Source: Chlamydiota bacterium
Lineage (GTDB): Bacteria > Auribacterota > JACPWU01
Direction: 5' to 3'
DNA length: 32,000 nt
NCBI GenBank assembly: GCA_016196885.1
Contig: JACPWU010000042.1
Coordinates: forward strand, 9,724-41,723
Shown here: piece by piece, positions 1,847 through 32,000 of the stretch
Position numbering within the stretch: the stretch's first letter is position 1
How the letters are laid out: each line of letters begins with the position of its first letter
Position numbers and translations under genes: made by a program
Notes under the pieces: model-generated
What the model saw: the letters and a program-made list of their open reading frames with translations, nothing else
What the model was told of the DNA's origin: nothing
Database searches by the model: none

Positions 1847-1925
1847 GTTTTTCTCTTATTTCGTGCATCGGTTGAAAATATTTTATCTTCTCGATGTACG
1901 AAGTTCGACGTACGAGGTACAGCTT

Positions 1926-6257: not shown

Positions 6258-6307
6258 ATTAAACCTTTTTATGATGTACTTGATTTGTCATCACATTCGC
6301 TCTTTTT

Positions 6308-6387
6308 TTGTAGTCGCCCGATTCATCGGGCAGCCCCATGAATGGGGCGACTACAAACAGCGCCCCATGAATGGGGCGACTACAAAA
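6308..6387. repeat. REP-like element family A, copy 2, with a duplicated right half.
   Basis: ttgtagtcgcccgattcatcgggcagccccatgaatggggcgactacaa followed by a second gccccatgaatggggcgactacaaaa. Confidence 0.85.
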
Positions 6388-6407
6388 TGAGCCTCACTTT
6401 CGAGGTT

Positions 6408-7478
6408 TTATTTGTACAGTAATTCCTCTTCCAATTTTTGGCTGTGAAGACGAGCTTTTTTTCCTCTTAAAATCAGTCGGACATTTCTAATCTCTGCAAT
6501 TTTTTGCCAGAGAAACCCGAGTGGAATGTCAAATCCCAGGGGATTTCCCAAAGAAGCTTTCGCTCCTTCTTCAAAAACACGATGATCTAAAGTTTTTTCA
6601 ATGACTGATTCACTTTTGGACTTTTCAGGAAGGGCAAAAATGGAACTGGCCAAAAGACATGCAGCCTCACTTGTTTCCTGCTGAATCAATGAAACAAATA
6701 AATTTTTCTTCAATCGAAGACCTGTCCCTTGAAAATAAAAAAGGGCTTCAGAAGGAGAGAGCTGTGGATTTCTCATTCTAAAAGCGGCTCTTAAGTTAAA
6801 GAGATCTTTCAAGCTATTTAAAATAGTACCCATGATTTTTTCTTCAGACTTTAAAGTGCTTATTTCATGTTCTGTATATTCAAAAAAAGCTTTTTCCAGC
6901 GCATTTTCAAGGAAAAAGATTTCCTTCTTTTCTTCAAAAAGGGGCAAGGTCTTCGTAAGGGCTTTTGAAAAAATCCATTTCCAAGTTGCAAGAATTTGAA
7001 TAACAGATTTTACATCTTCAGCAAGACTCAATTCTTTCAAGAGAGGTTCACTCAATCGGCCCGCTGGAACAATGCTCTCAATGATTTTTTGCGAGGGTTG
7101 ACGGGTGAAAACGCCTCTTAAAATCGTTTTAATGGCTTCCACATCCCAAAGAGTGAGCAGAAGTTCAAATAGCCTTGAGGGTCGTCCTTCTAAAAGCCCC
7201 AGAACGCCCTGAGTGGTTTCGGATAAATTCCTTCTTAAAACTTCTTCAAAAAGGGACGTGTCTCTTTGAGACACGTCTTGATCGTTTTTTAGGGTTTGAA
7301 AGTGATGACCCAAATGGGTGTTCTTTAAAATCTCAAGTGTTTCACTTAGATCTTTTGCATTCATCAATTCTTGATATTGCGAAGAGGAGAGAAGTTCCGA
7401 CTTCATCCCCCGAATGCGCGCATTGATATACGCGTAATCCTGCGAAGCACTTTGAAATTTTGTACCAGGTTGTTTCAT
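6408..7478 (-). CDS. atpC: A/V-type ATPase subunit C (V0 d-like).
   Basis: Track ORF 6408..7547 trimmed to the internal Met (MKQPGTKFQSASQDYAYINARIRGMKSELL...), because the 5' extension reads through a family-D palindromic element. All-helical ~356 aa. Operon position between E and F. Confidence 0.7.
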   Translation of the reverse strand: MKQPGTKFQSASQDYAYINARIRGMKSELLSSSQYQELMNAKDLSETLEILKNTHLGHHFQTLKNDQDVSQRDTSLFEEVLRRNLSETTQGVLGLLEGRPSRLFELLLTLWDVEAIKTILRGVFTRQPSQKIIESIVPAGRLSEPLLKELSLAEDVKSVIQILATWKWIFSKALTKTLPLFEEKKEIFFLENALEKAFFEYTEHEISTLKSEEKIMGTILNSLKDLFNLRAAFRMRNPQLSPSEALFYFQGTGLRLKKNLFVSLIQQETSEAACLLASSIFALPEKSKSESVIEKTLDHRVFEEGAKASLGNPLGFDIPLGFLWQKIAEIRNVRLILRGKKARLHSQKLEEELLYK

Positions 7479-7495
7479 CTTTATTATGATGTTGT

Positions 7496-7594
7496 AACCC
7501 CTCCGGCTCCCCTTAAATAAGGGGAGGGAAAAACCTCCCTTATTCAAAAGGGTAAAACCCCCCTCTTTATTTTAAAGAGGGGTTGGGGGAGTTA
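7496..7594. repeat. Palindromic element family D (termini TAAC[C/T]CCC ... GGGGAGTTA).
   Basis: taacccctccggctccccttaaataaggggagg...cccctctttattttaaagaggggttgggggagtta with internal CCCCTTAAATAAGGGG-type hairpins. Boundaries +/- 2 nt. Confidence 0.75.
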
Positions 7595-8596: not shown

Positions 8597-8765
8597 TTAA
8601 CCCCTCCAACTCCCCTTAAATAAGGGGAGAGAAAAACAACCCCTACTTAAAGGAGGAGAGTTCCCCTCTTAAATAAGAGGAGAAATGTAAAAAAACATTT
8701 ACTACCGCAGTCGGCTTTGCACTGCCACTGGCAGTGCAGCCTCCCTTGCTGGGTTAGGGGAGTTA
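8597..8765. repeat. Composite family-D palindromic element; its right end overlaps the atpI stop codon.
   Basis: ttaacccctccaactccccttaaataagggg...cccctcttaaataagagg...tgcactgccactggcagtgca...gggttaggggagtta. Its last ~110 bp is the reverse complement of 10647-10759. Confidence 0.8.
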
Positions 8766-10631
8766 TTTCAATTTTACTTTCTTCCTCGCCAGAGGTTGAT
8801 AAATGCTTCCTCCGGATTCGTAAAATTTAGTAAAAAATTCTACATAATGAAGACGGGCTGACTGAATGGTTGGGCTGAACGCCAAGGCCATGTTAATGAT
8901 ATGGAAGAGAATCGCAATAATCGCTCCCAATATCACATTTCCCACCAATCCTCCGAGCATGTTTCCGACAAAGGCTAAATAAGCACTGGCTACGCCGACC
9001 GCCATTAATCGGGCATAAGAGAGCATATTCCCGACAAATGAAAGAAGTTCCATAATCATCATGGGGCCTTTCATATAGATCAAAAGGGGAACGCCGATCA
9101 CCAGTGCAATGACAGATGGAATTTTTACCACAGTTGGAATTTGTTGGGCCAAAACACCGATCAAGACAAAAAGTCCGGCGAGAGAAACCAAAATGGCAAT
9201 CACTTCAATGATTTCATGGGTGTGGCGATGCCGAATGGATTGAATCAATTTAAGAATGAAGCCCAAGGTGACATGAAAAACGCCAATGCCGATCGCCAAA
9301 GCCAGAAGGGGGATGAGCGAATGCATGCGATCCCATTTGATGGTGGTGCCGCCCAGGTGCATGGTTAAGGGATGAAGAATACCTTTCTTCTCCAGAAAAT
9401 CTCCAAAAAATTCCCCAAACACAAAGCCGAAGAGAATGGTATAGAGAGAACAAACGATCACAATTTCCGAGACATGCTTTAAAAATTCCTGTTTTTTAGA
9501 GAGACGAAGCCAAAGTCCTAAGGCTAAAAAAACCAAGCCATACCCTATGTCTCCCATGATGAGGCCAAAGAAAATAGGAAAAAAGAAGGCGAAAAAGGGT
9601 GTGGGATCAATGCTTCCATACTTAGGCGGTCTCAAAACTTTAATGAAAAGCTCGTAAGGCTTAATCCAACGATGGTTGTCTAAAAGAACAGGTGCCTCGT
9701 GACATTCTCCGATTTCCAGATGGATTTTCCCCTGAAAGTGTTCGTTCAGTGTTTTTTGAAGTGAAGAAAGGGTTTTCTCAGGATTGTAGCCCGTGATGAC
9801 AAACGTCTTCTGAGTTTGTCCCAGCTCTCTCATCGCTTTTGAAGCGGCCATTTCATCTTCCAATTCAAGTTTGAGATGAAGGAGAGTGGAATAATTTTGC
9901 TGTGATAAATCTTTTAAGGACTGATCAACTTCTTTCAAGTCTTGAGGAATTTGCTTCAACTTTTCTTGCATCTTTTGAACAGCCTCTTGCAGGGGGTAAG
10001 ATGAAAGGCTGGATGGCATTTTGAGCTCATTTAATCCATATCTATTCAGAAGTGACTTTAAATTTTGATTGAGACTTTTAGGGTAAGCAAGTACCAGACC
10101 CAGTGTATCTTCATCTACAGATCGTTGGACCAAAATCACTTTTCCTGTAAAAGTTAGGGACAATTCTTTTTGTAAAGACTCTACCCGATTTCGATCCTTT
10201 TTTGAGGCAATGAGTCCCAGCGCTTCGAAGTGAGAACTTCCTTCTAGGGAAGCCAGAAGGGGGGATAAAATCTTGGTGGCTTCTCCATAGGCCTGAAGAA
10301 GGGCCCACTCATCTGAAAGCAATTGTCTCTTTTGAAGGAGATCCTGGCTTTTTTGAGAAATTTCATTGACCCAGGCTTCCATGTTATCGCCTAAAGGTGT
10401 TTCTGCAAGCTTGCCTAAAGGTTTGGGAAGGAGGGATAAAAGCGTCTCTAATTTTGAAATTAATTTTTCTTTTCCAGCAAACTCTTGAGAGGTCTTCTCG
10501 TTTAGACTCATTTTCTGAAGGCTGTCAGATTGGGTCAGATGAACGGTGCCTAATTTCTGAAGAAGATGGACAACCTCTTCAGAAAGATTCTTAGGCCCAA
10601 TGACCATTATTTTTTTCATCTTGGCGATCAT
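8763..10631 (-). CDS. atpI: A/V-type ATPase subunit I (a-subunit, stator/ion channel).
   Basis: 622 aa. N-terminal soluble coiled-coil half and C-terminal multi-TM half containing MLSYARLMAVGVAS (the conserved SYxRL arginine motif of a-subunits). Confidence 0.9.
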   Translation of the reverse strand: MIAKMKKIMVIGPKNLSEEVVHLLQKLGTVHLTQSDSLQKMSLNEKTSQEFAGKEKLISKLETLLSLLPKPLGKLAETPLGDNMEAWVNEISQKSQDLLQKRQLLSDEWALLQAYGEATKILSPLLASLEGSSHFEALGLIASKKDRNRVESLQKELSLTFTGKVILVQRSVDEDTLGLVLAYPKSLNQNLKSLLNRYGLNELKMPSSLSSYPLQEAVQKMQEKLKQIPQDLKEVDQSLKDLSQQNYSTLLHLKLELEDEMAASKAMRELGQTQKTFVITGYNPEKTLSSLQKTLNEHFQGKIHLEIGECHEAPVLLDNHRWIKPYELFIKVLRPPKYGSIDPTPFFAFFFPIFFGLIMGDIGYGLVFLALGLWLRLSKKQEFLKHVSEIVIVCSLYTILFGFVFGEFFGDFLEKKGILHPLTMHLGGTTIKWDRMHSLIPLLALAIGIGVFHVTLGFILKLIQSIRHRHTHEIIEVIAILVSLAGLFVLIGVLAQQIPTVVKIPSVIALVIGVPLLIYMKGPMMIMELLSFVGNMLSYARLMAVGVASAYLAFVGNMLGGLVGNVILGAIIAILFHIINMALAFSPTIQSARLHYVEFFTKFYESGGSIYQPLARKKVKLK

Positions 10632-10646
10632 AAAATTAGGAACTTG

Positions 10647-10866
10647 TAACTCCCCTAACCCAGCAAGGGAGGCTGCACTGCCAGTGGCAGTGCAAAGCCG
10701 ACTGCGGTAGTAAATGTTTTTTTACATTTCTCCTCTTATTCTAAGAGGGGAACTCTCCTGCCCTGTGCAAGGGGCGCTTTTTACTCTCCCCTTATTTCAA
10801 GCCCTTACAAGATTTTATAGTCCCCGCGGGATAGTCCCTGTGGGAAAGGGGAGTCGGAGGGGTTAA
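10647..10866. repeat. Composite family-D palindromic element, inverted relative to the 8597-8765 copy, 16 nt upstream of the atpI start.
   Basis: taactcccctaacccagcaagggaggctgcactgccagtggcagtgcaaagccgactgcggtagtaaatgtttttttacatttctcctcttatt... ends ...ggggagtcggaggggttaa. Confidence 0.8.
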
Positions 10867-11301: not shown

Positions 11302-11324
11302 TTGTCAATTAAAAACAGTCGTGC

Positions 11325-11401
11325 GTCGTGAGGGGTGAGTCGTGAGTAAGAGCAAAACAGTCGTGGAAGGAACTGACGACCCACGACTTACCCCTCACGA
11401 C
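11325..11401. repeat. 20-bp inverted repeat (family E) overlapping the stop of the 11395..12075 gene; possible terminator.
   Basis: gtcgtgaggggtgagtcgtg (11325-11344) versus cacgacttacccctcacgac (11382-11401), 19/20 complementary by eye. On the minus strand a T5 run follows about 8 nt after the stem. The loop is long (~37 nt). Confidence 0.4.
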
Positions 11402-12264: not shown

Positions 12265-12366
12265 TTAAACATTAGCGAGACGATGAAGGAGTTCAGAGAT
12301 AAAGGTCTGGTATCGAATACCCAGTTTCTTTGCTTTGTGCTTCAAGTTTTCTTGATCCGTCAAGCG
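12265..12366 (-). pseudogene. C-terminal remnant of a BrnA/CopG-like (ribbon-helix-helix) antitoxin gene, truncated at a family-A REP element.
   Basis: The minus-strand translation RLTDQENLKHKAKKLGIRYQTFISELLHRLANV* matches the remembered ...L..lKa.A...GipYQtlI...L pattern of BrnA-type antitoxins. There is no plausible full-length start, and no partner toxin is upstream. Confidence 0.4.
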
Positions 12367-12424
12367 TAGTCGCCCGATTTATCGGGCAATCCATGCATGG
12401 CCCCATAAATGGGGCGACTACAAA
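12366..12424. repeat. REP-like element family A, copy 3 (variant with a longer central spacer).
   Basis: gtagtcgcccgatttatcgggcaatccatgcatggccccataaatggggcgactacaaa. Confidence 0.8.
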
Positions 12425-15500: not shown

Positions 15501-15624
15501 AGTTTCTCCCCAGGCGGGAGGGCTTAAAGCGCCTCCGATCCGACGCGAATTACCGAAGGTGGGGCGAAACGATCTTTGTCCGTGTGGGAGTGGGAAGAAG
15601 TATAAGAAATGTTGTGGGATGTAA
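12556..15624 (+). CDS. secA: Preprotein translocase ATPase SecA.
   Basis: Track ORF trimmed to the ATG at 12556 (AAGGAG 7 nt upstream): [23 protein letters not shown]... Walker [44 protein letters not shown], and the C-terminal Zn motif [14 protein letters not shown]. Confidence 0.97.
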
Positions 15625-15775
15625 CTCCCTAGATTCCCCTCCCTTGATGGGAGGGGCTAGGGGAGGGTGGGTTTTTAAATGCCACCCCTCCTCCCCTAAC
15701 CCTCCTCATCACCCCGAAAGGGGCCGTTTCACGGAGGGGGAGGGAATTTTAAGACAGTCTGGGGAGTGGGTTGTC
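15622..15775. repeat. Family-D-like G/C-run palindromic element beginning at the secA stop codon; possible secA terminator/3'UTR structure.
   Basis: The TAACTCCCT terminus includes the secA TAA. Hairpins cccctccc-ttga-tgggagggg and ggggagggtggg-tttttaaatg-ccacccctcctcccc. Right boundary approximate. Confidence 0.6.
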
Positions 15776-17353: not shown

Positions 17354-18423
17354 GAAAGCGGCTTTGAAATTAAAAGAACTCCAGAGGTATCTTTGACTAC
17401 GAAAATGAGGTCACGAAATTAAAAGAATTAGAAGCGGTGATGGCCCAGAAGAATTTCTGGGATCAGGGTGAAAAGTCTAAAAAAGTCATTGAAGATTTAA
17501 AGGTTCTTAAAGCTAAATTAGAACCTGTTACTCATCTTGAGAAAAAATTCCACGACTTAAAGGCGATGTTAGATCTGGTCAGAGGAGAAGATTCAACCGA
17601 GGCTCAGGAATTGCTGAAAGAATTGGGAAGCGAGCTTTCTTCATTTGAAACGGACTTGGGAGATATTGAAATTCACAATCTTTTGGCCGGCGAATACGAT
17701 AAAAATTCTGCGATTTTGACCATTCATTCCGGGGCGGGTGGGACGGAATCTTGCGATTGGGCGGACATGCTCCTTCGCATGTATCGCCGATGGATGGAGC
17801 GCCATCACTTTAAGGCAGAGGTGGCGGACATTTTACCGGGGGAAGAGGCGGGTGTTAAAAGCGTGACTTTGCTGGTGGAAGGGGATTACGCCTACGGTTA
17901 TATGAAGGCGGAAAAGGGCGTTCATCGTTTGGTGCGGATCTCTCCCTTTGATTCTAATAAGAGGCGCCACACCTCTTTTGCGTCGGTGGATGTGATTCCT
18001 GAAATCACAGACGATATCCCGGTGGATATTGACGAAAAAGATTTAAAGATTGATACGTTTCGCGCGAGTGGGGCGGGTGGGCAGCATGTGAATAAGACAG
18101 ATTCAGCGGTTCGCATCACGCATCTTCCCACCGGTATTGTGGTCTCCTGCCAGAACGAACGCTCTCAGTACAAAAATAAATCCATGGCCATGAAAATTCT
18201 TCGGGCCAGGGTTTACGATGTAAAGCGTAAAGAACAGGAAGAAAAAATGGCCAAAGTCTATGGCCAAAAGTCAGACATTGCCTGGGGAAGCCAGATCCGC
18301 TCTTATGTCTTTCAGCCCTACACCTTGGTGAAGGATCATCGTACTTCGGTTGAAACTTCCAATGGGGATGCGGTGATGGATGGGGATATTGATTTATTTA
18401 TTCAAGCGTATTTGAGGCAGTAG
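17325..18423 (+). CDS. prfB: Peptide chain release factor 2, made by a programmed +1 frameshift (join 17325..17393, 17395..18423).
   Basis: ATG 17325 (AAGGAG upstream) gives MISEIKERIEKAALKLKELQRYL, then in-frame TGA at 17394. The +1 frame continues DYENEVTKLKELEAVMAQKNFWDQ... and contains the RF2 motifs SPF (RISPFDS) and GGQ (SGAGGQHVNKT). Confidence 0.93.
17385..17397 (+). promoter_or_regulatory. prfB autoregulatory +1 frameshift site.
   Basis: AGG TAT CTT TGA C: internal SD-like AGAGG, 3-nt spacer, slippery CTT, UGA stop followed by C. Almost the same as the E. coli site (AGG GGG TAT CTT TGA C). Confidence 0.9.
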
Positions 18424-19194: not shown

Positions 19195-19271
19195 TGTTTT
19201 TCTTTGTTATGAAAGTGGATGATGGATCATGGATGATCGATGTTGGATTCCTTTCTCTCGTTCAAGTTTGT

Positions 19272-19434
19272 GTAGTCGCCCGATTCATCGGGCAGCCCCA
19301 TACTCAAGAGGCCATATTCCACCCTACAGGGGTGATTCTTCTGGTGATAGTTTCCAGCCTCTTTATCCTGAGTACTGTCAGAATTGTACGAATCAAACTT
19401 AATGAACTGACTTGTAAATGGGGCGACTACAAAA
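19272..19434. repeat. REP-like element family A, copy 4, split by an internal insertion of about 115 bp.
   Basis: Left half gtagtcgcccgattcatcgggcagccccat (19272-19301) and right half aaatggggcgactacaaaa (about 19416-19434) are separated by unrelated sequence. Next to it, cattgcacacgatgaccccc-aaaaa-gggtcattg (19458-19501) has an inverted relative at about 1272-1300. Confidence 0.7.
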
Positions 19435-21999: not shown

Positions 22000-22147
22000 G
22001 GGTTTTAGCTCCAATGAAATTAAATATCATAATCCATTATATCACAATGGGTTATGATCTTAGGCCTTTTTTGTCTGATAGCGTTTTGACGTTTAGGGGT
22101 GCGCTATTGTCTATTATAGGAAGATTCAAAATATCATAGGCAAAGGC

Positions 22148-25100
22148 ATGTTTTCTATCTATCATAAAATTATATCCATAAGATTTTGGGCTGCAGTCAT
22201 TTGCATCTCATTTTCCATTCAGAGTCTATTTTTGGATACGGGGTGGGCGCAGGAAAGAATGATGGATGTTGGAAGTTCGAAATTGGAGGGAAAAGCCGAG
22301 CGAACTGTTGTTCCATCTAACATCCAACCTCTATCCTCCAACGTCAATGTATCCACCAAACTTGGCGACATCCTTGAACGCCATCAAGGAAGCAGTGACA
22401 AACTCATCATCCACATCCAGGACGTGCACTGTCATTTTGAGGCGCAAAGTAACAGCGCCAAAATCATGAACGAGCTCATGAAAGAGCATGAAGCGCATGG
22501 GCTCAAAATGATCGGGCTTGAAGCCGCAGGGGGAGAGGTAGACACAAGCAAATTCACCGCCTTCCCAGATCCTGCAATCCGCAAAATGCTGGCCGAATAC
22601 CTCATGAAAGAAGGAAAAATCAGCGGCGCGGAATATTTATCGATCGTCAAAAACAAGCCCCTGCCACTTCAAGGGATAGAAAACATGAAAGAATACTTCA
22701 CGCATTTGGTTCAATTTGACAGAGGGCAAGAGCTTAAAAGTAAGGCAGAGCCTATTCTTCAAGGAATAGAGAAACGAATTGAAGGCTTAAAAGAGGAAAT
22801 CTACTCAAAAGAAGTGAAAGAGATTCTAAAAGAGAATGAAAGGTATGCGAGTGGGAAGATAGAACTTGGGGACTACGTAGAATATTTAATCTCGTGCTTC
22901 GCAAACCGTACATCGAACATCGAACATCGGACATCGAACCAAACAGAGTCCGAAGTACGAAGTCCGAAGTACGATGTACGAGTCACACATCCCAATATTG
23001 ATCTCATGCTCCAGATGAGTGAAATAGAAAAGAATTTAGATTTAAAAGCAGTCGAAGAAGAGCGAATCAAGGTGATAGAGGAATTAAGCAAGAGTCTTGT
23101 GAAAGAAGAAGTGATAGAGCTCATGACGAAGAGCTTATATTACCGCTTAGAAAAAATGGATGCGTGGGAATACTATGAATATTTAAAAAAGCTCATAGAG
23201 CGAAACACAGAGGGTCAAAGGTCAAGAGTCAAGGATCAGGAAAATAGGGACCAGAGTAACTCCCCTCTTAAGGTAAGAGGGGATGGGGGAGTTATGAAAG
23301 ACAAAGGAAGTTATATAAACCTCACACAATACATCCAAATGACCGAGCTCTACCACCAAATCGACAGCAACGTTCTCATGAAAGAATGCGAAGAATTAAG
23401 CCAAAGCGTCCTGGATCAAACGCTCAAGAGCCCAGAAGAAAAGGGGCTACACAAGATAGAAGAAGACTTTGCGCTCTTAAAGAACCTCATAGAGATAGAG
23501 CTCAAGAAAAGCCAATACAAAATATATTTAGAGAACAAAGAGAGGGTCACATTTAAGAGTATCGTGGAAAGGATCAATGAAATAGCGGTTCAAGAAAGTA
23601 AAGGAATTAACTCCCCTCGATCCCCTCTTAAAATAAGAGGGGAAGAGAAACAAGAGACGGAGGAGTACTCCCCTCTTAAAATGAGAGGGGCTGGGGGAGT
23701 TAATATTTTAGCCAAGACGCAAGACACCATCACCTATCTTGATCAACACCTCAAAGACACAGAAGCCTTTTACGAATATTCAGACACCCGAGAAAAGTCA
23801 CTGGTCGAGAACACGCTCACCAAGATGGAAGAAGAGAAGAGCCCGATTGCGATTCTCTACACAGGAGGTTTTCACACCGATGGCATGATGGAGCGACTAA
23901 AGAAGGAAGGGGCTTCTTATGTGGTGATAGCTCCCAGAATTACAGAATTCAAACTGAAGACCCCTTATTTATCTATTATTAAGAATGAGCCCAATGAACT
24001 AGAAAAAGCAATAAAGGGAATTCAAAAGAAAGAAGGATCAAATTTAGCTCCTTTAAAACATGGGGTAGATATAAACGCATTGAGGGGATTGATGGAGCGT
24101 CTCCCCCTCAATGATCCTCGTAAAGAGACCATTCAAAGAGTTATAGATGCAGATAAAACACTCGACCTCATGGCGATCTTCTTCGTAGAGCTTCTTTACG
24201 TGGCACAGTTGTGGGAAGCCCAAACCCCTGAAATTCATCTTCAGGAAATTTATGACTCAATGATGGAAAAATGGAAAGGACTTATAGGTGATGTTTTTGA
24301 AAAACAAATAGGAAAAAAAGTTATTTTTAATATTCAGGGAGCCAGTCGATCTAAGAATGGAGCGTTTTATATTCCCATCCGGATAGAAGGAGGGGAGGGG
24401 TTATATCTAAAACTGACTCAAGAAACAAAATTTGATGATGTGAAAGAATATCCAGAAAAATATTTGGTTACAGGACTACCTCACAGTGCTGCGAATGATT
24501 ATATTCAGAGGCATCTACCGGAAGATTTAAGAAAAAACAAAGACGAAATAAAAAACTATCCTCAACACAGTTATTTAAACCCTACTACGATAGGAAAAAC
24601 AGTGCAAGCCAGAGTGATTCCCATTCCAGGACTCTTTGAAGCGACGGGGCAATTGGGGCATATTGGACTAGGGCAGGTTTATGGAGAGCCTGTCATTTAT
24701 GTGGACGCTGATTATGATCCTCGGAAAGCAAAGACTGAGGGAGAGGATGCCGAGACAGTACTAAACCACGAAGCCTATGAAATTACAGGTTGGGAATCGA
24801 AGAGTATAGAGTTGGGTAAAACTCCATCTCAAATGAGAATGTGGATTCAAGATAGTAATCATTTTGAAGAAGCAAAGGCTTATGCAAAAAAACTTCACGA
24901 ATCTGCGCCGTCTGTAGATGAAATCATTAAAAAAAGAAGGGGGAGTCTGCAAGGCTGTATTGAACAGCACTTGGCAATGGCCCAAGAAATTTATGAGGAC
25001 GAGGAAGGGGATATTAATTTAGAGGCGGGAATGGATGAAAAAAATGGGGTCCTGTTCTTACAGGGGGAAGAGAGTGAAAGAGTTTTGCAAACAGAAGATC

Positions 25101-28100
25101 AATGGATTCCTTTGGATGGGTTGATTGGATATCTGAGGCAGGTGACAGGGGAGACAGGTGGGCGGGATTATGGAGAATGGTTTGATCATCCTGAAAGTTT
25201 AGCGCAGGCAGTTCAATCTTTTGGAGGAGAACCGGCTCGTGTGGGTCCTTTGATTCATCAGCAGTCGGACTATGAGAATCAGGCGGCGGTTGAGCTTGTG
25301 GCCAATGGGATTGACGCTATGCTGGCTCTGGCCCAAGGAAAATTTCCAATCGGTCGGTTTGGAGTGGGAGCCTTTCAGGTATTGCAGGAATTGGAACATG
25401 AAGATGATGAAGTGGTTTGGACCAGCTCTCGTGATGGCATAACGGCCTGGCGGGTTACGGTAAAGCTCAAGGACAATCGTTACGTCGTTCGTTTTAGCAA
25501 AGTTACTCAGGGTGTTAGCCAAGGAACAAAAGTTCAAGTGCATCATCAGCTCTATGCAAAAAAACAGCAGAAAGACCTTAAGGATTACTTGGAGGAAAAA
25601 CTGCGCTATAACAATAAAGTAAAGATCATGGTGAATGGAGTACATATTAATTCTCTAGAGGGTCTTACCTATCAAAATGGTGGGAGCCTCAACTATGAAA
25701 TGGCGGGCCAGATTAATATCCTCATCGATGAACATGGATACATTGTTACGGATGATGGAACGGGTATGGATGCTGAGGCCATTTATACGAAATTGCTGCT
25801 TCCCAGGGTGGGTCAAGGATATCGAGGAAAACCGGACGGTGAAAGTAGTGCAGACCATACCCGTCTCTTTTACCGCCAAAGTGAGAAGAGTCCAAGAGAG
25901 AAGACAAAGGTACGTGTAGGAATATTGGTCAGTGGCGTCCAGATCGAAGGATTTGAAATTGAAGGATATAACCTACCTCAAGATTTTGTTCTGGAGCTGC
26001 CCTATTGGACGCACTTGACGGAAGGCCGGAACAAAATCTCGCTGGATGAGTTGACGCTCGAGGCCTTGGAGATCACACTTGACAAGATCTTTCATGCACC
26101 GTCAAATCTTCAGCCTCAGCTTGTCAATGCCTATGCGCTTCTATTAAAACATTTTGCTGAGGACTCTGCGAGAAGAGACCTTGTAGAGGAATTAAAAATA
26201 ATATTTATTCAAAAAATTGGGAATTGGAAAAAGGCTCAACCAAACAAAATATGTCTTCCCAATGAAGAAGGGTTTATGGCCGTTCAGCTTCCAGAGCATT
26301 ATGAAGCAAATTATTTAGACACTTGGGCAAATCCTCTGAGGCCTCAAGAAATTGTGGGGGTCCAAAAGGTGAAAGAATGGAGAAGCAATCGAGGATATAG
26401 CTTATGGACCATTCCCATGGCGGATGCCAAAGACCCCTATTTTATCAGTGGAAAGTATATTTTTGTTGATGAGAGTCTATATAGAACGCAAGAAGATGTG
26501 CCTGCTGCTATAGATCTTGTCGTGAATCCCGTAGATGTGGATTATGGCATTCCAGAAGAACCCTATGGAAGTTTGGAGCCTGCGGAAGAATCTATAAAAA
26601 TAAAGACTCTCGCAGAGAAGACAAAATCAGAAGTGATGGCTCCAGATCTTCAAGAAAAATGGGATGCACTTCTAGGTTTATCCTCCAGCCAAAAAAGAGA
26701 GGTAAGAGAGTTCATTCGACACTATGGCCCCGAAAATCATGAGGCTGTTATGAAATGGCTCGAAAGACTTCAATCATTTTCCAATCTTGACGGATGGACG
26801 GAGGTCTTTTCAAAAATATTGCCTGGAAACATGAGAATGGATTCTAAAAAAAGAGAAGGGCAGGGATTTTACTTTATCGGAACTCCATTCCAAATGGGAG
26901 AAAAGTGGTGTGTCGTGGTATGCCAAAAAAAGGAAGAGCCTCGTAAACTTGCCGAGATCAATCCTGCCAATGGTTACATCACAGTCCCGAAAGGAGCAAC
27001 GGGATTCTACAATATCAGGACACCTTTTAGAGCCGGAGAAAATTGGTTTGTAACGGTAGAACGAGAAAAAGACGGTCCTCAATCCTTTGCGAAAGTAGAT
27101 TTGGCAACGGGCTTAGTCGAGCTTTCTCGGGGAGCAAATGGGTTTTTATCTATTGGAAAACCGGTTCAGATAGGACAAAAGTGGTTTGTCATAACGGGTG
27201 GTCAACACGGTTACATTGCATCCCTTGCCAGGTTTGATCCTGAAACTGGGATTGTCAAAGTTCCTGATGGAGCAAATTCTTTTAATGGCATGTCAGAGCC
27301 CTTTCAAATGGGAAATCAATGGTTTGTAAATGTCACGATTGTGAATTTACAAAGTTTGCATGCCATTGCTCGTATTGATGAAGAAAGAGGAATCGTAGCG
27401 GTACCTGATGAATTAGGCAATTTTGACATAGTTGAAACCCCGTTTGAAATTGGGAATAAATGGCATGTGATTGTAAAAAAAGAGGGTTTTTATACCCTAG
27501 CTAAAGTGGATCCTGGCAGCGGTCAAATCACGGTTCCTGAGGATGCCAATGGGTATTACTATGTCAATGGACCTATTCGAATTGGTAAAAATTGGTTTGT
27601 CCAAGTTCAGAAAGAAAAGGATGGACCGCATACACTGGCGAAAATAGATTTTCGGGATGGGTCAATAATATTACCCAAAAGGGAAACGACGAATTTTCGT
27701 TACATTGACAGTCCATTCCAAATAGGAGAGAAATGGTTTGTCGGGGTAGGAGGCCATCCAAGTAATTTAGGGTCTGCTTTTGCTTCTGTCGATCCTGAGA
27801 CAGGAGAAATATCATTACCCTCTTCATGGGTAGAAGCAATAGATCATTTTGGTTCTATACTGGATCAGAAAACTTGCATTCAAATAGGAGAAAAGTGGTA
27901 TGCGAAAGTTGGGGAAGGAGTTAGAGGCCCCTGGACACTTGCCGAAGTAGATCCCAATACGGGTCGCATCACGATCCCTGGGCATGCGCAGTGGTTTTCT
28001 ATTATTCGAGTGCCCTTTCAGTTAGGCACAAAATGGGTTGTGGAGGTTTCTGAAAAATTAACAGATCCGCATGCATTTGCTGAGGTTGATCCTGAAAATG

Positions 28101-31100
28101 GGCTTATGAGAATTCCATATGGAGCAAGGTATTTAAAGTCTATAAATGGCCCCTTTAGCCTTGTCGAAAAACAGTATCTCCATGCGAAAGAAAATTCTTA
28201 TGATGATTCTGAATTTATGATTTCTATTTCCGCAACCCCGTTCAGGCAAGGAGAGTGGGGAGAGTTAGAGTTTAGCACGGTAGAAAAATCTCTTCGGGAG
28301 TTGTACATTCTGTTTCATGATGTCCCCGGGTCTCGCGAAAGGTATTTAGAAAATCTATTTTATCTACCCGCCAGGTTTTCCGATCTTTTTGAGAGCGATT
28401 TCTTTCATAGACTCTTGGCCTTATTCCCGACGGATCTACTACAGCATTTGAGTCCCAAAACCGCTGGGGTTCTTACAGGAGTTTTAAAAACGATGACAAC
28501 CTCACGTGTTCAAGGATCGTTTCTTTCCTTTTTTGATCGTGTCGATCTGGGCAGCCTAAATGAGACGGCGCTTGAGGCTGTGATTCATCGTTGGGTGAGC
28601 ATCTGGAATATTGTGGGATCAAATGTGAATGCAAGGAATAGCCTATTGGAGGGGCTGGAGCGTTATCCAGATTTTCTATCCTCTGAATTTGATGTGCAAG
28701 GAGTCCAAGATCTTTCTCTTATGCTGTATATGTGGATACTAAGAGGGGAAGAAGAAGGTATGGGGGAAAAAAAGAGCCCGCATTTGACACGTAGAGATAT
28801 CACTAGATCTATAACTGATATTCCTCTTGCTAAAATTATTCAAGCTTATCGGGAAAATCCCTCAGGAGTTCGTGGCATTCAATCTCTGGCAGATTATGAG
28901 CAATATCTTCAAGCTGTTCAGAAAAAGAAAACGGATGCGGTAGAAAGTGAAATTGCTTCCGCTCAAGAAGGGCAAGATACCACCGATCAACTTTATTTAA
29001 GAGAAAATGTTCAAAACGCTCGAGATGCCATGGATGAAAAAGAGATAGAGGGCCCTGTTGAAGTGGATAGCTATATTGAAAAAGGGACTGAAAATTGGGT
29101 GGTCTCAGTGGAAGACAAGGCGGGAACGGATATTGGGACATTTTTGAGTGATTTTTTTGTGCCCGATCTTACGACAAAGAAGGGAAAGGGGCTTGCGGGG
29201 ATTATGGGTCAAGGGGTTTACACCAACTTCCTTGACTTTGATGAACTGCGAATCAAGACAGGAACAGGGAAGAACGGAAAGGCCTATTACGCCGTTCTTC
29301 ATAGGGATAGATCGGGAAAGATTATTTTAAAAAGCCTTGAAGAGGTCAATGATTCTTATCAAGGGACGAGGATAGAACGGGTCAAACGACAGTGGAATAT
29401 TGAAGAATCTGCTGTTTGGAATGCATTAACCGCTTCGAATCTCAGGCGATATGTGGGAGGTGTGAGTGATCGAGAAATTCTTTTTAGAGGGAATCGTATG
29501 AATGATCCACTGACTGTCTTAAGCGAAGTGAAGACAAAATGGGGGACCTTATCCATCAAGCTAAGCAAGGCAGGGTATCGCCGTGTGACTCAAAAGGGCC
29601 TCTACCTTCAAACTCCGAATGAAGAATATCTGGCCCTTGTTCCAGAAAAATACAAGAAAATGCTCTTGGAAAGGGGGCTCAATATTGATTTACCTCCAGA
29701 ACTTTCACTCACCCGTTCCAGAACGACCCTGGCTAAAAAAGGGAAAAACAAGAAGGCCATTCAGCAAGCCGTTGCCAAGGGCGTACTAGAAGCAATCGTC
29801 AGGCTTTATCTCGAAGAAGGAGTCATCCCGCCGGGCCTTTCGGAAGACTATTTTGATTCTCCTGTGATTCATGGAGGAGGGCTCACAAATTTTGAACGAT
29901 ACGCCCGTGAGGCCGTTGGAACTTTTGGAGAGGGAAAAGAAGTGAAGGGGGATGCAAATTTTATCAATCAAGGAAAATGGGCCCAAGTCAAGTTTGAAAA
30001 ATATCTTATTCAAGAAAAAGATTCGGACGAATTAAAAGAAAAGAAGAGCCGATCCTTGGCTTATCTCATGAGTCTTATTGAGGTGGAGCAGGGAGGGGAG
30101 ACGACTTCTCTTGAAAAAATGCGGCAGACATTTTTAAATGCGATGAGAGGTAAACAAAGTGTGGAGTCTCTAAAATCAAAACATCGGGGTCTAGAGAAAT
30201 ACCTAAAGCAATCAGAAGAACTTGTGAATAGAAAAGTGGCTGCGATCGACACTCCGCGAAGAGATATTGATTTGAAGAAAGAAGAACCCTATCCGGGGGT
30301 AAGAAAATTTGTGGAATTGACACAAATTGGATTACAAGCCCTAGGTCGCAGCGACATTCAGGTAGGAGTTTACGAACGGGAAGAGTCTCGATTAGCGGAC
30401 TTTGGAGATCATCTCCTGATGTGGAATTTACTTAGGATAAAGACTGAGCTTGCGGCTTTAAATAACATTCTTTCGGGCGAAGCTAGCGCAATAGAAAAGA
30501 ACAAGTTCTTTAGGTGGTTTCTACATTACCTTACCCATGAACTCTCCCATTTTGCTGATCAAGGAAAGGCCTCACATCAGAAAGATGACTCTCTTGTGGG
30601 CCTCTTGGCATGGAATCAGAAAGAACTATTGAAGAAATTCCTAAATGCCAAGTTGTCATGGGATGAGATAGAGAGAAGACTTAATTCCGGGGACACAGTA
30701 TTTAATTCTGCCACCTCAGAAGCTGGAATGGCCCCGCTGATGAGTCTTGTACTGAATTGGTTTGGGATTCCACGTGAAAAGCAAGCGGGGTATGAGCAGG
30801 TGGGTTATTTAGCAGCATTTATCATCATTGTTGCAAGTATAGTTGCTTCGACACCATTATTGATGCAAGGCTTTTTGGGGATGATGGGGGTGGCGGGAAT
30901 TTTTATTTTGATTCATCCCTTGAGTTATTTCGTCATACGAATTTTTGAAAAATTATTGGGCTGTCAGCTGATGCCTCAAGGGCCGCCTCTCAAGGGGATG
31001 GTTCTGGGCGCAATGAAAGTGGCCTTGGCGAACACCCTTTCCCTCATTCCTGCTTACCTTCTCTACATGAATTCTCATCCAGCTCTTGCGATCGTTGCGC

Positions 31101-32000
31101 TTCTTTTTTACATTCCTGCGAGTAGATACCATCACGAGATGAATTTGGGGTTTTTAAAGAAGGCAAGATTAGAAAATTACGATGCAACGGCAGCGAGTCT
31201 CTTTTCAACGATGGCGAGCCTGTTTTCAAGAACCTTAAACTCTTCAAAACTAACTTTGCCCTTCAGATCATTTTTGATCAATCTTACATCCGATTCGATG
31301 CGATTATTACTTTCTTCGAGTTTGGCGATCCTTGCTTCGATGCGCAAATTGCTTTCTTCAAGCTTGGCGATTCTTCCCTCGATCTTGGTGAATCTCTCCT
31401 TGGTTTCATACCGAAAGCTCAGCAGGCTATTGGAAAGAGCCTCGAATCTTTTTTCAGATTTTTCTGACTCTTCATCAACTTTGTTGCGAAGGGCAACGAC
31501 GTTTTCTCCAACAGCCTTAAACTGGCTTCGCATTTCTTCGATAAGAACGGCATTGTACCGCTGGATATCGTCTGTCGGAAGAGGTTTTGGAGATTTCTTT
31601 TCTTTCATGAAAGGAATCTTACATCCTGAGTCAAATCGAGTCAATTGGAATAATGGATCAGCAGATGTCGTGACCCCATTGCCAAAACGAACTCCCTCCG
31701 CCATGAAAGAATATAGCGGAGAGGATAAAGATGTTGCAGCGTTTCATGAGCGCTATAAGACTGAAGCTGGGTCTATTGGGGGAGAGCAGCTGGAGAGAAT
31801 TCGTACAAATGTGATTCGTGCCTGGGGAGACCTTTCTCGAGAAGGCCTTAAAGCCCTGAGGGAATTGGGGCTTACGCGGGATGGGGTCATTGAGCAATTT
31901 CGGAGAATAGATAATAGAACTGAGATAAAAATTGGGAAAGCGAACTATGCCGTGAACATTCACTGGCGGGAGGGCCCTTATGAATTAAAGGGAGTCAAAC
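22148..32000 (+). CDS. Giant multidomain protein, 3' end outside the window (at least 3,284 codons with no stop). Coding is confident for 22148 to about 31140; the stretch 31177-31700 conflicts with a minus-strand ORF.
   Basis: Hand translation of frame 2 finds no TAA/TAG/TGA from 22097 to 32000. The translation is protein-like and purine-rich throughout 22148-31140. Motifs: IIHIQDVHCHFEAQ / IGLEAAGGE / YTGGFHTDG; ELVANGIDA + IGRFGVGAF; about 10 x (PFQIGEKWFV...VDPETG.I.VP); LRENVQNARDA + VEDKAGTDIG + GIMGQGVY; THELSHF; C-terminal TM helices. Confidence 0.85.
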   Translation, partial: MFSIYHKIISIRFWAAVICISFSIQSLFLDTGWAQERMMDVGSSKLEGKAERTVVPSNIQPLSSNVNVSTKLGDILERHQGSSDKLIIHIQDVHCHFEAQSNSAKIMNELMKEHEAHGLKMIGLEAAGGEVDTSKFTAFPDPAIRKMLAEYLMKEGKISGAEYLSIVKNKPLPLQGIENMKEYFTHLVQFDRGQELKSKAEPILQGIEKRIEGLKEEIYSKEVKEILKENERYASGKIELGDYVEYLISCFANRTSNIEHRTSNQTESEVRSPKYDVRVTHPNIDLMLQMSEIEKNLDLKAVEEERIKVIEELSKSLVKEEVIELMTKSLYYRLEKMDAWEYYEYLKKLIERNTEGQRSRVKDQENRDQSNSPLKVRGDGGVMKDKGSYINLTQYIQMTELYHQIDSNVLMKECEELSQSVLDQTLKSPEEKGLHKIEEDFALLKNLIEIELKKSQYKIYLENKERVTFKSIVERINEIAVQESKGINSPRSPLKIRGEEKQETEEYSPLKMRGAGGVNILAKTQDTITYLDQHLKDTEAFYEYSDTREKSLVENTLTKMEEEKSPIAILYTGGFHTDGMMERLKKEGASYVVIAPRITEFKLKTPYLSIIKNEPNELEKAIKGIQKKEGSNLAPLKHGVDINALRGLMERLPLNDPRKETIQRVIDADKTLDLMAIFFVELLYVAQLWEAQTPEIHLQEIYDSMMEKWKGLIGDVFEKQIGKKVIFNIQGASRSKNGAFYIPIRIEGGEGLYLKLTQETKFDDVKEYPEKYLVTGLPHSAANDYIQRHLPEDLRKNKDEIKNYPQHSYLNPTTIGKTVQARVIPIPGLFEATGQLGHIGLGQVYGEPVIYVDADYDPRKAKTEGEDAETVLNHEAYEITGWESKSIELGKTPSQMRMWIQDSNHFEEAKAYAKKLHESAPSVDEIIKKRRGSLQGCIEQHLAMAQEIYEDEEGDINLEAGMDEKNGVLFLQGEESERVLQTEDQWIPLDGLIGYLRQVTGETGGRDYGEWFDHPESLAQAVQSFGGEPARVGPLIHQQSDYENQAAVELVANGIDAMLALAQGKFPIGRFGVGAFQVLQELEHEDDEVVWTSSRDGITAWRVTVKLKDNRYVVRFSKVTQGVSQGTKVQVHHQLYAKKQQKDLKDYLEEKLRYNNKVKIMVNGVHINSLEGLTYQNGGSLNYEMAGQINILIDEHGYIVTDDGTGMDAEAIYTKLLLPRVGQGYRGKPDGESSADHTRLFYRQSEKSPREKTKVRVGILVSGVQIEGFEIEGYNLPQDFVLELPYWTHLTEGRNKISLDELTLEALEITLDKIFHAPSNLQPQLVNAYALLLKHFAEDSARRDLVEELKIIFIQKIGNWKKAQPNKICLPNEEGFMAVQLPEHYEANYLDTWANPLRPQEIVGVQKVKEWRSNRGYSLWTIPMADAKDPYFISGKYIFVDESLYRTQEDVPAAIDLVVNPVDVDYGIPEEPYGSLEPAEESIKIKTLAEKTKSEVMAPDLQEKWDALLGLSSSQKREVREFIRHYGPENHEAVMKWLERLQSFSNLDGWTEVFSKILPGNMRMDSKKREGQGFYFIGTPFQMGEKWCVVVCQKKEEPRKLAEINPANGYITVPKGATGFYNIRTPFRAGENWFVTVEREKDGPQSFAKVDLATGLVELSRGANGFLSIGKPVQIGQKWFVITGGQHGYIASLARFDPETGIVKVPDGANSFNGMSEPFQMGNQWFVNVTIVNLQSLHAIARIDEERGIVAVPDELGNFDIVETPFEIGNKWHVIVKKEGFYTLAKVDPGSGQITVPEDANGYYYVNGPIRIGKNWFVQVQKEKDGPHTLAKIDFRDGSIILPKRETTNFRYIDSPFQIGEKWFVGVGGHPSNLGSAFASVDPETGEISLPSSWVEAIDHFGSILDQKTCIQIGEKWYAKVGEGVRGPWTLAEVDPNTGRITIPGHAQWFSIIRVPFQLGTKWVVEVSEKLTDPHAFAEVDPENGLMRIPYGARYLKSINGPFSLVEKQYLHAKENSYDDSEFMISISATPFRQGEWGELEFSTVEKSLRELYILFHDVPGSRERYLENLFYLPARFSDLFESDFFHRLLALFPTDLLQHLSPKTAGVLTGVLKTMTTSRVQGSFLSFFDRVDLGSLNETALEAVIHRWVSIWNIVGSNVNARNSLLEGLERYPDFLSSEFDVQGVQDLSLMLYMWILRGEEEGMGEKKSPHLTRRDITRSITDIPLAKIIQAYRENPSGVRGIQSLADYEQYLQAVQKKKTDAVESEIASAQEGQDTTDQLYLRENVQNARDAMDEKEIEGPVEVDSYIEKGTENWVVSVEDKAGTDIGTFLSDFFVPDLTTKKGKGLAGIMGQGVYTNFLDFDELRIKTGTGKNGKAYYAVLHRDRSGKIILKSLEEVNDSYQGTRIERVKRQWNIEESAVWNALTASNLRRYVGGVSDREILFRGNRMNDPLTVLSEVKTKWGTLSIKLSKAGYRRVTQKGLYLQTPNEEYLALVPEKYKKMLLERGLNIDLPPELSLTRSRTTLAKKGKNKKAIQQAVAKGVLEAIVRLYLEEGVIPPGLSEDYFDSPVIHGGGLTNFERYAREAVGTFGEGKEVKGDANFINQGKWAQVKFEKYLIQEKDSDELKEKKSRSLAYLMSLIEVEQGGETTSLEKMRQTFLNAMRGKQSVESLKSKHRGLEKYLKQSEELVNRKVAAIDTPRRDIDLKKEEPYPGVRKFVELTQIGLQALGRSDIQVGVYEREESRLADFGDHLLMWNLLRIKTELAALNNILSGEASAIEKNKFFRWFLHYLTHELSHFADQGKASHQKDDSLVGLLAWNQKELLKKFLNAKLSWDEIERRLNSGDTVFNSATSEAGMAPLMSLVLNWFGIPREKQAGYEQVGYLAAFIIIVASIVASTPLLMQGFLGMMGVAGIFILIHPLSYFVIRIFEKLLGCQLMPQGPPLKGMVLGAMKVALANTLSLIPAYLLYMNSHPALAIVALLFYIPASRYHHEMNLGFLKKARLENYDATAASLFSTMASLFSRTLNSSKLTLPFRSFLINLTSDSMRLLLSSSLAILASMRKLLSSSLAILPSILVNLSLVSYRKLSRLLERASNLFSDFSDSSSTLLRRATTFSPTALNWLRISSIRTALYRWISSVGRGFGDFFSFMKGILHPESNRVNWNNGSADVVTPLPKRTPSAMKEYSGEDKDVAAFHERYKTEAGSIGGEQLERIRTNVIRAWGDLSREGLKALRELGLTRDGVIEQFRRIDNRTEIKIGKANYAVNIHWREGPYELKGVK
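22907..22980. repeat. Palindromic/tandem-repeat element (family F, CGTACATCG...CGATGTACG) lying in frame inside the giant ORF.
   Basis: cgtacatcgaacatcgaacatcggacatcgaac...gtccgaagtacgaagtccgaagtacgatgtacg. 9-bp perfect terminal inverted repeat, with internal 7-nt (catcgaa x4) and 14-nt (gtccgaagtacgaa x2) direct repeats. Translated as RTSNIEHRTSNQTESEVRSPKYDVR. A related cgatgtacgaagttcgacgtacg occurs intergenically at about 1893-1917. Confidence 0.7.
23257..23294. repeat. Minimal family-D palindromic element in frame inside the giant ORF.
   Basis: TAACTCCCCTCTTAAGGTAAGAGGGGATGGGGGAGTTA. Termini TAACTCCCC/GGGGAGTTA with inner stem CCCCTCTTA/TAAGAGGGG. Translated as NSPLKVRGDGGV. Confidence 0.8.
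23608..23702. repeat. Family-D palindromic element (double inner hairpin) in frame inside the giant ORF.
   Basis: taactcccctcgatcccctcttaaaataagaggggaagagaaacaagagacggaggagtactcccctcttaaaatgagaggggctgggggagtta. Translated as NSPRSPLKIRGEEKQETEEYSPLKMRGAGGV. Confidence 0.8.
26864..28275 (+). repeat. About 10 (+1 degenerate) tandem coding repeats of ~46 aa (~138 nt) within the giant ORF; beta-propeller-like.
   Basis: The core recurs at roughly 26885, 27023, 27161, 27299, 27440, 27572, 27714, 27876, 28012 and 28151: PFQMGEKWCV, PFRAGENWFV, PVQIGQKWFV, PFQMGNQWFV, PFEIGNKWHV, PIRIGKNWFV, PFQIGEKWFV, CIQIGEKWYA, PFQLGTKWVV, PFSLVEKQYL. Each is followed by ..LA(K/E)VDP.TG.I.VP.GA. Confidence 0.85.
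31177..31608 (-). CDS. Coiled-coil protein (hypothetical), antisense to the open plus-strand frame. The start could also be the ATG at 31704.
   Basis: MKEKKSPKPLPTDDIQRYNAVLIEEMRSQFKAVGENVVALRNKVDEESEKSEKRFEALSNS...IEGRIAKLEESNLRIEARIAKLEESNNRIESDVRLIKNDLKGKVSFEEFKVLENRLAIVEKRLAAVAS. Clean heptad-like periodicity, TAA stop at 31177-31179, and a purine-rich minus strand here, unlike the flanks. It cannot coexist with a conventional reading of the giant ORF. Confidence 0.5.
   Translation of the reverse strand: MKEKKSPKPLPTDDIQRYNAVLIEEMRSQFKAVGENVVALRNKVDEESEKSEKRFEALSNSLLSFRYETKERFTKIEGRIAKLEESNLRIEARIAKLEESNNRIESDVRLIKNDLKGKVSFEEFKVLENRLAIVEKRLAAVAS

Follow-up and report, generated by a model that had tools for sequence, protein, structure and literature searches.

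We analysed a stretch of 32,000 nucleotides (the window) from a genome deposited as Chlamydiota bacterium and placed by GTDB in Auribacterota (assembly GCA_016196885.1, contig JACPWU010000042.1, positions 9,724 to 41,723), in which short palindromic repeats lie both in the spacers between genes and, in frame, inside the gene of a giant protein. The window carries a V-type ATPase operon, secA, lnt, prfB, a tRNA-Pro gene and an LMF1-like gene, and an Rfam search of it returned nothing beyond one tRNA. The gene which hosts the repeats occupies the last third of the window (Table 1) and its product, judging from the translation, is a giant protein that is secreted or membrane-anchored and begins with a hydrophobic segment near its N-terminus. 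An earlier note on this DNA, made from the sequence and a list of open reading frames, had proposed that three repeats in this gene behave like the Rickettsia palindromic elements (RPEs), which insert in frame into protein genes.

Results

The three in-gene elements (sites 1, 2 and 3) lie where the earlier note had placed them inside the giant open frame, and the translations that it gave for them are exact (Table 1). All inserts fall within a conserved N-terminal domain of approximately 600 amino acids, and they belong to two element classes. Family F consists of inverted tandem arrays of heptamers. Family D consists of cassettes which enclose one to three hairpins of the form TCCCCTCTTA-N3-TAAGAGGGGA and which, when complete, are bounded by terminal inverted repeats (TIRs), TAAC(T/C)CC... 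on the left and ...GG(A/G)GTTA on the right. Hairpin potential was assessed by folding each element as DNA and comparing it with 200 dinucleotide shuffles, which gave z = -4.2 for the family F copy (0 of 200 shuffles folded as well), z = -2.7 for the family D copy D1 (4 of 200 as good) and z = -4.0 for D2 (1 of 200). The family F copy contains no stop codon in any of the six frames and therefore only its length matters, while the site-2 cassette is open in three of six frames, the one in use being that which begins with NSP.

Table 1 Repeat elements of the window and their host gene (TRF, Tandem Repeats Finder).
Feature	Position	Strand	Description
Host gene	22148-31999	+	Open frame 22097-31999, 3,301 codons; first ATG at 22148; runs off the window end
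Family F element, site 1	22907-22980	+	Inverted arrays, ACATCGA x4.3 then AGTACGA x5; TRF period 7; translation RTSNIEHRTSNQTESEVRSPKYDVR
Minimal family D cassette, site 2	23257-23294	+	TAACTCCCC tag, one hairpin (TCCCCTCTTAAGGTAAGAGGGGA), inverted tag GGGGGAGTTA; translation NSPLKVRGDGGV
Double-hairpin family D cassette, site 3	23608-23702	+	Translation NSPRSPLKIRGEEKQETEEYSPLKMRGAGGV; same cassette at same site in paralogues
Decayed heptamer array	23219-23256	+	GGTCAAA GGTCAAG AGTCAAG GATCAGG ...; directly upstream of site-2 cassette; within gap relative to homologues
Probable decayed heptamer array	22316-22352	+	CATCTAA CATCCAA CCTCTAT CCTCCAA ...; after N-terminal hydrophobic segment; translation PSNIQPLSSNVNV
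Family D cassette, three hairpins	7495-7594	+	Intergenic, between two V-ATPase genes; stops in six of six frames
Family D cassette, extra hairpins	8598-8765	+	Intergenic; GTTA end is the TAA stop of the V-ATPase subunit I gene (minus strand)
Family D cassette	10647-10865	+	Intergenic; inverted relative to 8598-8765, with a perfect 94-nt stretch in common
D-like cassette	15622-15680	+	Intergenic; TAA of tag is the secA stop codon; right boundary provisional, right terminus not identified
Heptamer array	1893-1920	+	Intergenic; CGATGTA CGAAGTT CGACGTA CGAGGTA; unit (CGANGTA) is the right arm of the in-gene family F copy
Inverted heptamer array, AGTCGTG unit	11317-11400	+	Intergenic; z = -4.5; unit also in frame at site 2 of paralogue P0002

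Relatives of the host protein were not readily found, as a word-indexed homology search with the N-terminal 851 residues as query returned no match and a 186-residue subquery gave two weak matches only. An exhaustive HMMER search was therefore needed, and it recovered 7,513 homologues of the N-terminal 851 residues at E≤1e-3, from which we conclude that the host gene is real. The nearest relatives are proteins of metagenome-assembled genomes (MAGs) labelled in NCBI as Chlamydiae or Chlamydiota bacterium, including paralogues in MAG GCA_016178005.1. In a scan of a genome collection the lineage had no close relative, the best matches having approximately 33% identity (MAGs of Omnitrophota, Auribacterota and Elusimicrobiota) and none of them carrying the family D unit. 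The conserved domain (window 22349-24100), which carries the motif IIHIQDVHCHFEAQSN, represents a very large protein family by virtue of these 7,513 members; no Pfam domain was found in the giant protein, and no significant match emerged when the fold of the host domain was compared with the PDB, the only structural hints being faint ones of erythromycin esterase and HopBA1 (E ~2-3).

The earlier note had named conservation of the same peptides among homologues as the outcome that would speak against insertion. The peptide segments proved not to be conserved, and the alignment is gapped at all three sites in 26 of the 30 closest retrieved homologues (30-39% identity). Measured as the distance between conserved anchors, the three loops are 34, 44 and 62 residues long in the window protein, as compared to medians of 14, 16 and 27 in 150 homologues. 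The reading frame is kept throughout and homology to relatives resumes on both sides of the inserts. We also built an AlphaFold model on a 30-sequence alignment (mean predicted local distance difference test, pLDDT, of 81), in which the only internal stretches with pLDDT <50 (residues 198-206, 302-319 and 421-451) coincide with the elements (residues 187-211, 304-316 and 421-452 for sites 1, 2 and 3), in line with inserts placed in surface or disordered regions of the host protein. The helices flanking the inserts are modelled with pLDDT >90, and the inserts would thus sit between intact structural elements. The empty sites in homologues, the repeats recognisable in the DNA and the low-confidence loops of the model together support in-frame insertion of the RPE kind.

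Relatives of both families occur between genes of the same window, as had been claimed, with four intergenic cassettes assigned to family D and one array of the family F unit (Table 1), and inverted heptamer arrays of other units lie in further spacers (2571-2684 and 1446-1498, besides that listed at 11317). Both secA and the V-ATPase subunit I gene end in a stop codon that comes from a family D tag. The three long intergenic cassettes (beginning at 7495, 8598 and 10647) contain stops in six of six frames, the in-gene cassettes are open in the frame used, and a cassette in a different giant gene of a related MAG (locus L045, 5284-5421) begins in a different frame (TPPAPP... vs NSP...). The six-frame stops between genes and the change of frame in another gene indicate that we are dealing with DNA elements rather than with a protein motif that has been copied.

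The lengths of the cassettes bear on how the frame is kept. The earlier note required the net insert to be a multiple of three. The cassettes at sites 2 and 3, measured from TA to TA, have 38 and 95 nt, which are both 2 mod 3, and a multiple of three results only if a TA is duplicated or shared. The same remainder is found for in-gene cassettes of 116, 149 and 83 nt, the last being in a leucyl-tRNA synthetase (LeuRS) gene described below, while the intergenic cassettes of 100, 168 and 219 nt are 1, 0 and 0 mod 3. This pattern fits selection for a net insert of 3n with a duplicated TA, and a constant offset of the boundaries would give the same pattern.

Two paralogues of the host protein, P0001 and P0002, are 55% and 53% identical to it and are encoded in different genomic contexts in MAG GCA_016178005.1. 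Both element classes recur in their DNA, in the loops that hold them in the window gene. At site 1, P0001 has a GTTCAAA/TCCAACA array and P0002 is empty; at site 2, P0001 has an ACATCGT/ACATCGA array, which is the family F unit, and P0002 has a GTCGTGA array, the unit of the window spacer at 11317-11347. Site 3 holds the same cassette in all three genes (loci L044, 11503-11618, and L045, 11383-11531, for the paralogues), with inner modules whose lengths differ by multiples of three. Homologues from other lineages carry unrelated repeat-like peptides in these loops, such as VAAERSSA (twice) in P0029, ETTKQS...LLRFARNDD in P0150, VTSNQKP (twice) in P0071, and a further one in P0084. Because other lineages carry other repeat-derived peptides there, and because the paralogues differ in their site-2 units, we conclude that the three loops are permissive in general. 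The site-3 peptides of P0150 and P0084 (ETTKQS...LLRFARNDD and GRGAPRNDR) resemble what a further palindromic repeat would give when translated.

The paralogues also clarify two degenerate stretches of the window gene. The site-2 insert, relative to homologues, spans approximately 23219-23296 and includes a stretch which, read from the letters and below the TRF score threshold in the window, appears to be a decayed heptamer array; cleaner arrays adjoin the site-3 cassettes of the paralogues in the same position (L044 11473-11499 and L045 11355-11383). The stretch at 22316-22352 is likewise a probable heptamer array, degenerate in the window, and the equivalent place in L044 (10179-10208) holds a clean CATCCAA x4.3 array. 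A second, unrelated giant gene (L045 1-7817, 9,014-aa product, contig JACOUD010000054.1 of MAG GCA_016178005.1) contains the in-frame family D cassette at 5284-5421 mentioned above, as well as a left tag at 6325 and a 24-nt tandem repeat at 6350-6420, and giant genes seem to be preferred hosts of the elements.

These comparisons allow two other origins of the in-gene copies to be judged. The organism is known from metagenomic assemblies only, which break at repeats, and a Logan contig from SRR12113387 covering secA-lnt-prfB, the only one with an exact match to lnt, is only 6.7 kb long, so that repeat-induced misassembly could be suspected of having placed intergenic repeats into the gene. This we regard as extremely improbable, given that two paralogues in an independent NCBI MAG share the cassette and the site at which it lies, and that all inserts preserve the frame with homology on both sides, which a random misjoin would rarely achieve three times. 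Alternatively, the segments could be native protein motifs under selection from which the intergenic copies derive, an origin favoured by the peptide NSPRSPL(K/I)LRGEEKQ, common to the three paralogues, and by the single frame and orientation of all cassettes in the paralogue family. It is largely refuted, and we give it very little credence, as the segments are absent from the 26 gapped homologues and predicted to be disordered, the three long intergenic cassettes are closed in all six frames and a different gene uses another frame, and the unit, a palindrome found mostly between genes, also occurs in unrelated phyla and in phages.

This wide distribution concerns family D, which is built from an asymmetric unit of 33-35 nt, TAACTCCCC-N3-5-CCCCTCTTA-N3-TAAGAGGGG, assembled into cassettes of 38 to ~220 nt. 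The core hairpin occurs in at least 120 metagenome contigs with GC contents of 0.33-0.65. Among the matches listed, to which the metagenome counts that follow refer, a TAAC(T/G/C)CC tag is present on one or both sides in 95 of 122 hits with enough flank, most often on one side only, and in 75 of these 95 it starts 12-14 nt before the hairpin. The copies are mainly intergenic, a few using the TAA of the tag as a stop codon or CAT as a divergent start. Approximately 10 copies are in frame inside genes that can be recognised, with Pfam domains to either side, the hosts being the editing domain of LeuRS, PolA (twice), Mfd, a DEAD/MrfA helicase, a DinG-like helicase, MnmA, FemAB, an M17 peptidase and an ATP-grasp enzyme. 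In the LeuRS case, an 83-nt cassette sits in a gene of a Patescibacteria bacterium at a site which is empty in the closest relatives and in the T. thermophilus enzyme, and its composite architecture is matched by that of the window cassette at 7495-7594.

The hairpin was also found in 69 predicted-viral contigs, where 76 of 95 copies are tagged and six are read through by long open reading frames (ORFs), two of which encode Mu-like portal proteins. Four IMG/VR contigs (L170, L199, L201 and L225) have three to four tagged hairpins within 4.6-11.4 kb, a much higher density than in most cellular contigs. The earlier note had described the elements as unrelated to RPEs and as lying in a lineage unrelated to Rickettsia; family D is not private to this lineage, the unit being spread across phyla and phage contigs.

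We considered the heptamer arrays as a feature diagnostic of, or generally linked to, family D units, and dropped this idea. Arrays lie near 3 of 128 units, as against 3.8 expected, showing no enrichment elsewhere, and period 7 is the commonest period in control loci too (11.5 per 100 kb, vs 27 in the chlamydial loci). That arrays and cassettes adjoin each other in the chlamydial genes is probably due to permissive loops which they share.

Discussion

The three segments of the giant gene are insertions of DNA-level repeats, located in loops, and the family D unit behaves alike in unrelated bacteria and phages. We consider it likely that two classes of non-coding hairpin repeats from the spacers landed, as passengers, in three permissive loops of the giant protein. 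The host would be a fast-evolving secreted protein with permissive surface loops, and the copies seen in the gene would be the survivors of a filter for a net length of 3n, no stop in the frame used and an undisturbed fold. The additional 20-35 residues would form disordered surface loops, that is, linker peptides and not functional protein motifs. [quoted passage not shown] Such processes are favoured by the tag-plus-hairpin architecture, the gene-end positions, the stop codons supplied by tags and the bias in host genes. The heptamer arrays presumably grow by replication slippage, and gene conversion among copies may keep a shared cassette better conserved than the gene around it.

Several observations weigh against this explanation or loosen parts of it. 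One is the conservation of the site-3 cassette, the 5' module of which has 81% invariant columns and 81-89% pairwise identity, compared with 47-56% and 60-72% in the coding flanks. A purely neutral passenger should not be conserved beyond its flanks, unless it undergoes gene conversion or re-insertion; conversion with other copies, re-insertion at a hot spot and selection on the nucleic acid are all possible causes of the excess. Gaps in the alignment are also expected to lower pLDDT, so that low values at the inserts are not independent proof of disorder in the modelled loops. The cassette at L045 5284-5421, with 138 nt, is an exception to the 2-mod-3 rule, which five of six in-gene cassettes fit, and the lengths are only consistent with duplication of a TA target. 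No transposase was found in the window or between the unit pairs of eight multi-copy contigs, where there are ordinary genes only, and mobility is therefore deduced from distribution only. Finally, the insert peptides are predicted translation products, known from the reading frame alone.

The conservation of the cassette module above its coding flanks could also mean that the inserts have been recruited for regulation, either as mRNA hairpins that tune translation or stability, or as contingency loci in which gain or loss of one 7-nt unit of a heptamer array switches the gene on or off by shifting its frame. A unit of seven is not a multiple of three, so one-unit slippage would indeed shift the frame, and the host is predicted to be secreted, having an N-terminal hydrophobic segment. 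There is moreover a probable orthologue, P0003 (HYS08_04295; MBI1883410.1 / MBI3266138.1), with 77% identity to the window protein by HMMER and 80% in our alignment A1, which is truncated shortly before site 2. It is called as a 360-aa protein in which homology is lost ~15 codons before site 2, identically in two MAGs, and this could be a frameshift or a pseudogene. The break thus lies upstream of the array and not within it; in addition, slippage is inefficient in arrays as short and imperfect as these (4-5 units, 85-91% matches), and the family D unit is found in housekeeping genes (LeuRS, PolA) where switching would be harmful. We therefore think that a regulatory role is unlikely, and retain passenger insertion as the likely explanation.

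RPEs, reportedly described by Ogata et al. in 2000 and 2002, are 100-150 bp long, restricted to Rickettsia and unrelated in sequence to the elements described here. The likeness to them lies in palindromic repeats that occur between genes and in frame inside them, the RPE host being an obligate intracellular bacterium (PMC3733652), and in extra translated peptide segments which leave the host protein undisrupted. The differences are that the units in our case are of 33-38 nt in cassettes of 38-219 nt, that there are two classes, and that the family D unit crosses phyla. We do not claim membership of the RPE families proper, from the description of which the elements are set apart by their Chlamydiota host and far shorter units. 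Rickettsia thus holds as a precedent for the behaviour, but not as the sole one, since intragenic in-frame REPs have been documented in many species outside Rickettsia (Di Nocera et al. 2013, PMC3733652).

REPs and their inverted pairs (REPINs) combine a short tag with an imperfect hairpin of 20-40 nt, are mostly intergenic and form inverted pairs or mosaics (PMC3733652; Bertels and Rainey 2011, PMC3116915). A minority of intragenic REPs are in frame, notably in genes for replication, repair, helicases and tRNA enzymes, and the termini of GTAG REPs can supply stop codons (PMC3733652). The family D unit resembles them as a palindrome of 33-35 nt, mainly intergenic, in at least 120 metagenome contigs. 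In the window, its tag-plus-hairpin copies likewise lie for the most part between genes, occur as inverted pairs or mosaics, can provide stop codons and are in frame in a minority of cases; a REP-like bias in host genes is seen only in the metagenome hosts (LeuRS, PolA, Mfd, helicases, MnmA) and not in the window. It differs in its TAAC(T/C)CC tag, with no GTAG or CGTC at the foot of the hairpin, and neither the window nor the intervals between eight unit pairs contained a RAYT gene.

MITEs of the Correia/NEMIS and RUP types are 100-160 bp long, with TIRs of 20-30 bp, and have known parent insertion sequence (IS) families. Both types duplicate TA (PMC3733652, PMC10969869). Family D shares with them TIRs starting with TA, non-coding sequence, positions near gene ends and in-gene lengths consistent with TA duplication, but its TIRs are of ~9-10 nt and most copies are tagged on one side only. 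Neither the window nor the loci examined showed a parent IS whose TIRs match. Elhai et al. reportedly described in 2008, in Genome Research, cyanobacterial small dispersed repeats (SDRs; cited in PMC3116915), hairpins of 21-27 nt which nest in each other and in short tandemly repeated repetitive (STRR) heptamer arrays. We note a resemblance in that every family D cassette of the chlamydial giant-gene paralogue family adjoins a heptamer array. The phylum and the sequences are different, and adjacency to heptamers is not general for the family D unit and may reflect no more than permissive loops held in common.

The behaviour of the elements is that of RPEs and intragenic REPs and is of a kind already known. 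What appears to be new, within the literature searched, is its occurrence in Chlamydiota and a TAAC-tagged unit with reach across phyla and into phages; searches for the sequence strings of the unit returned unrelated papers only. Classical chlamydiae almost completely lack repeats (Waddlia genome paper, PMC2878342), and our observations add Chlamydiota to the lineages whose proteins have taken up selfish hairpin repeats. They also point to a tiny repeat unit common to distant bacteria and phages, in frame in such essential genes as those for LeuRS, DNA polymerase I and Mfd. As a tentative possibility, which we hold to be less probable than not, the TAAC-tagged unit may represent an undescribed cross-phylum family of ultra-small mobile DNA (Chlamydiota, Patescibacteria, phages) that repeatedly adds peptides to essential proteins, moved by an enzyme and possibly carried by phages. 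If so, its conservation above background in coding sequence would point to concerted evolution or to a selected nucleic-acid function and, if the mobilising enzyme were found, it would be one of the smallest known transposable units. In practical terms, the inserts inflate or fragment gene calls in MAGs, break assemblies and blocked the word-indexed homology search, and they mark permissive loops of uncharacterised giant proteins.

Other features of the window

Parts of the two family D cassettes that flank the V-ATPase subunit I gene (8763-10631, minus strand) form a perfect 94-nt inverted repeat (8672-8765 / 10647-10740). Identity of 100% over 94 nt implies, as far as can be read from one sequence, that gene conversion or duplication took place very recently, and the gene could become inverted by means of the repeat.

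Another repeat family pairs GTAGTCGCCCGATTCATCGGGC with GCCCCATGAATGGGGCGACTAC; it is GTAG-tagged and forms inverted doublets like REPINs. It is found at 1321-1383, 6303-6394, 12366-12424 and 19265-19301 with 19409-19433, is intergenic only and has no copy in the giant gene. Between the two halves at 19265-19433 stand ~107 nt that are unrelated in sequence, possibly a nested insertion.

Within the giant ORF, repeats with a period of ~138 nt at 26885-28137 have the consensus peptide PFQxGxKWFV and appear to be protein-level tandem domains and not DNA elements. The tail of the frame (31100-31999) has an odd, low-complexity translation (LSSSLAIL...) with a 42-nt tandem repeat at 31294-31383, and it is overlapped by an antisense ORF of 175 aa (31177-31704, minus strand), so that the giant frame may comprise more than one gene toward its end.

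In secA, approximately 100 extra residues were considered as a hidden element and rejected, as they correspond to the usual variable region and have no repeat signature. Upstream of the RF2 ORF (17437-18423), the sequence CTTTGAC at ~17383-17389 (window 17374-17436) looks like the classical +1 programmed frameshift site of prfB.

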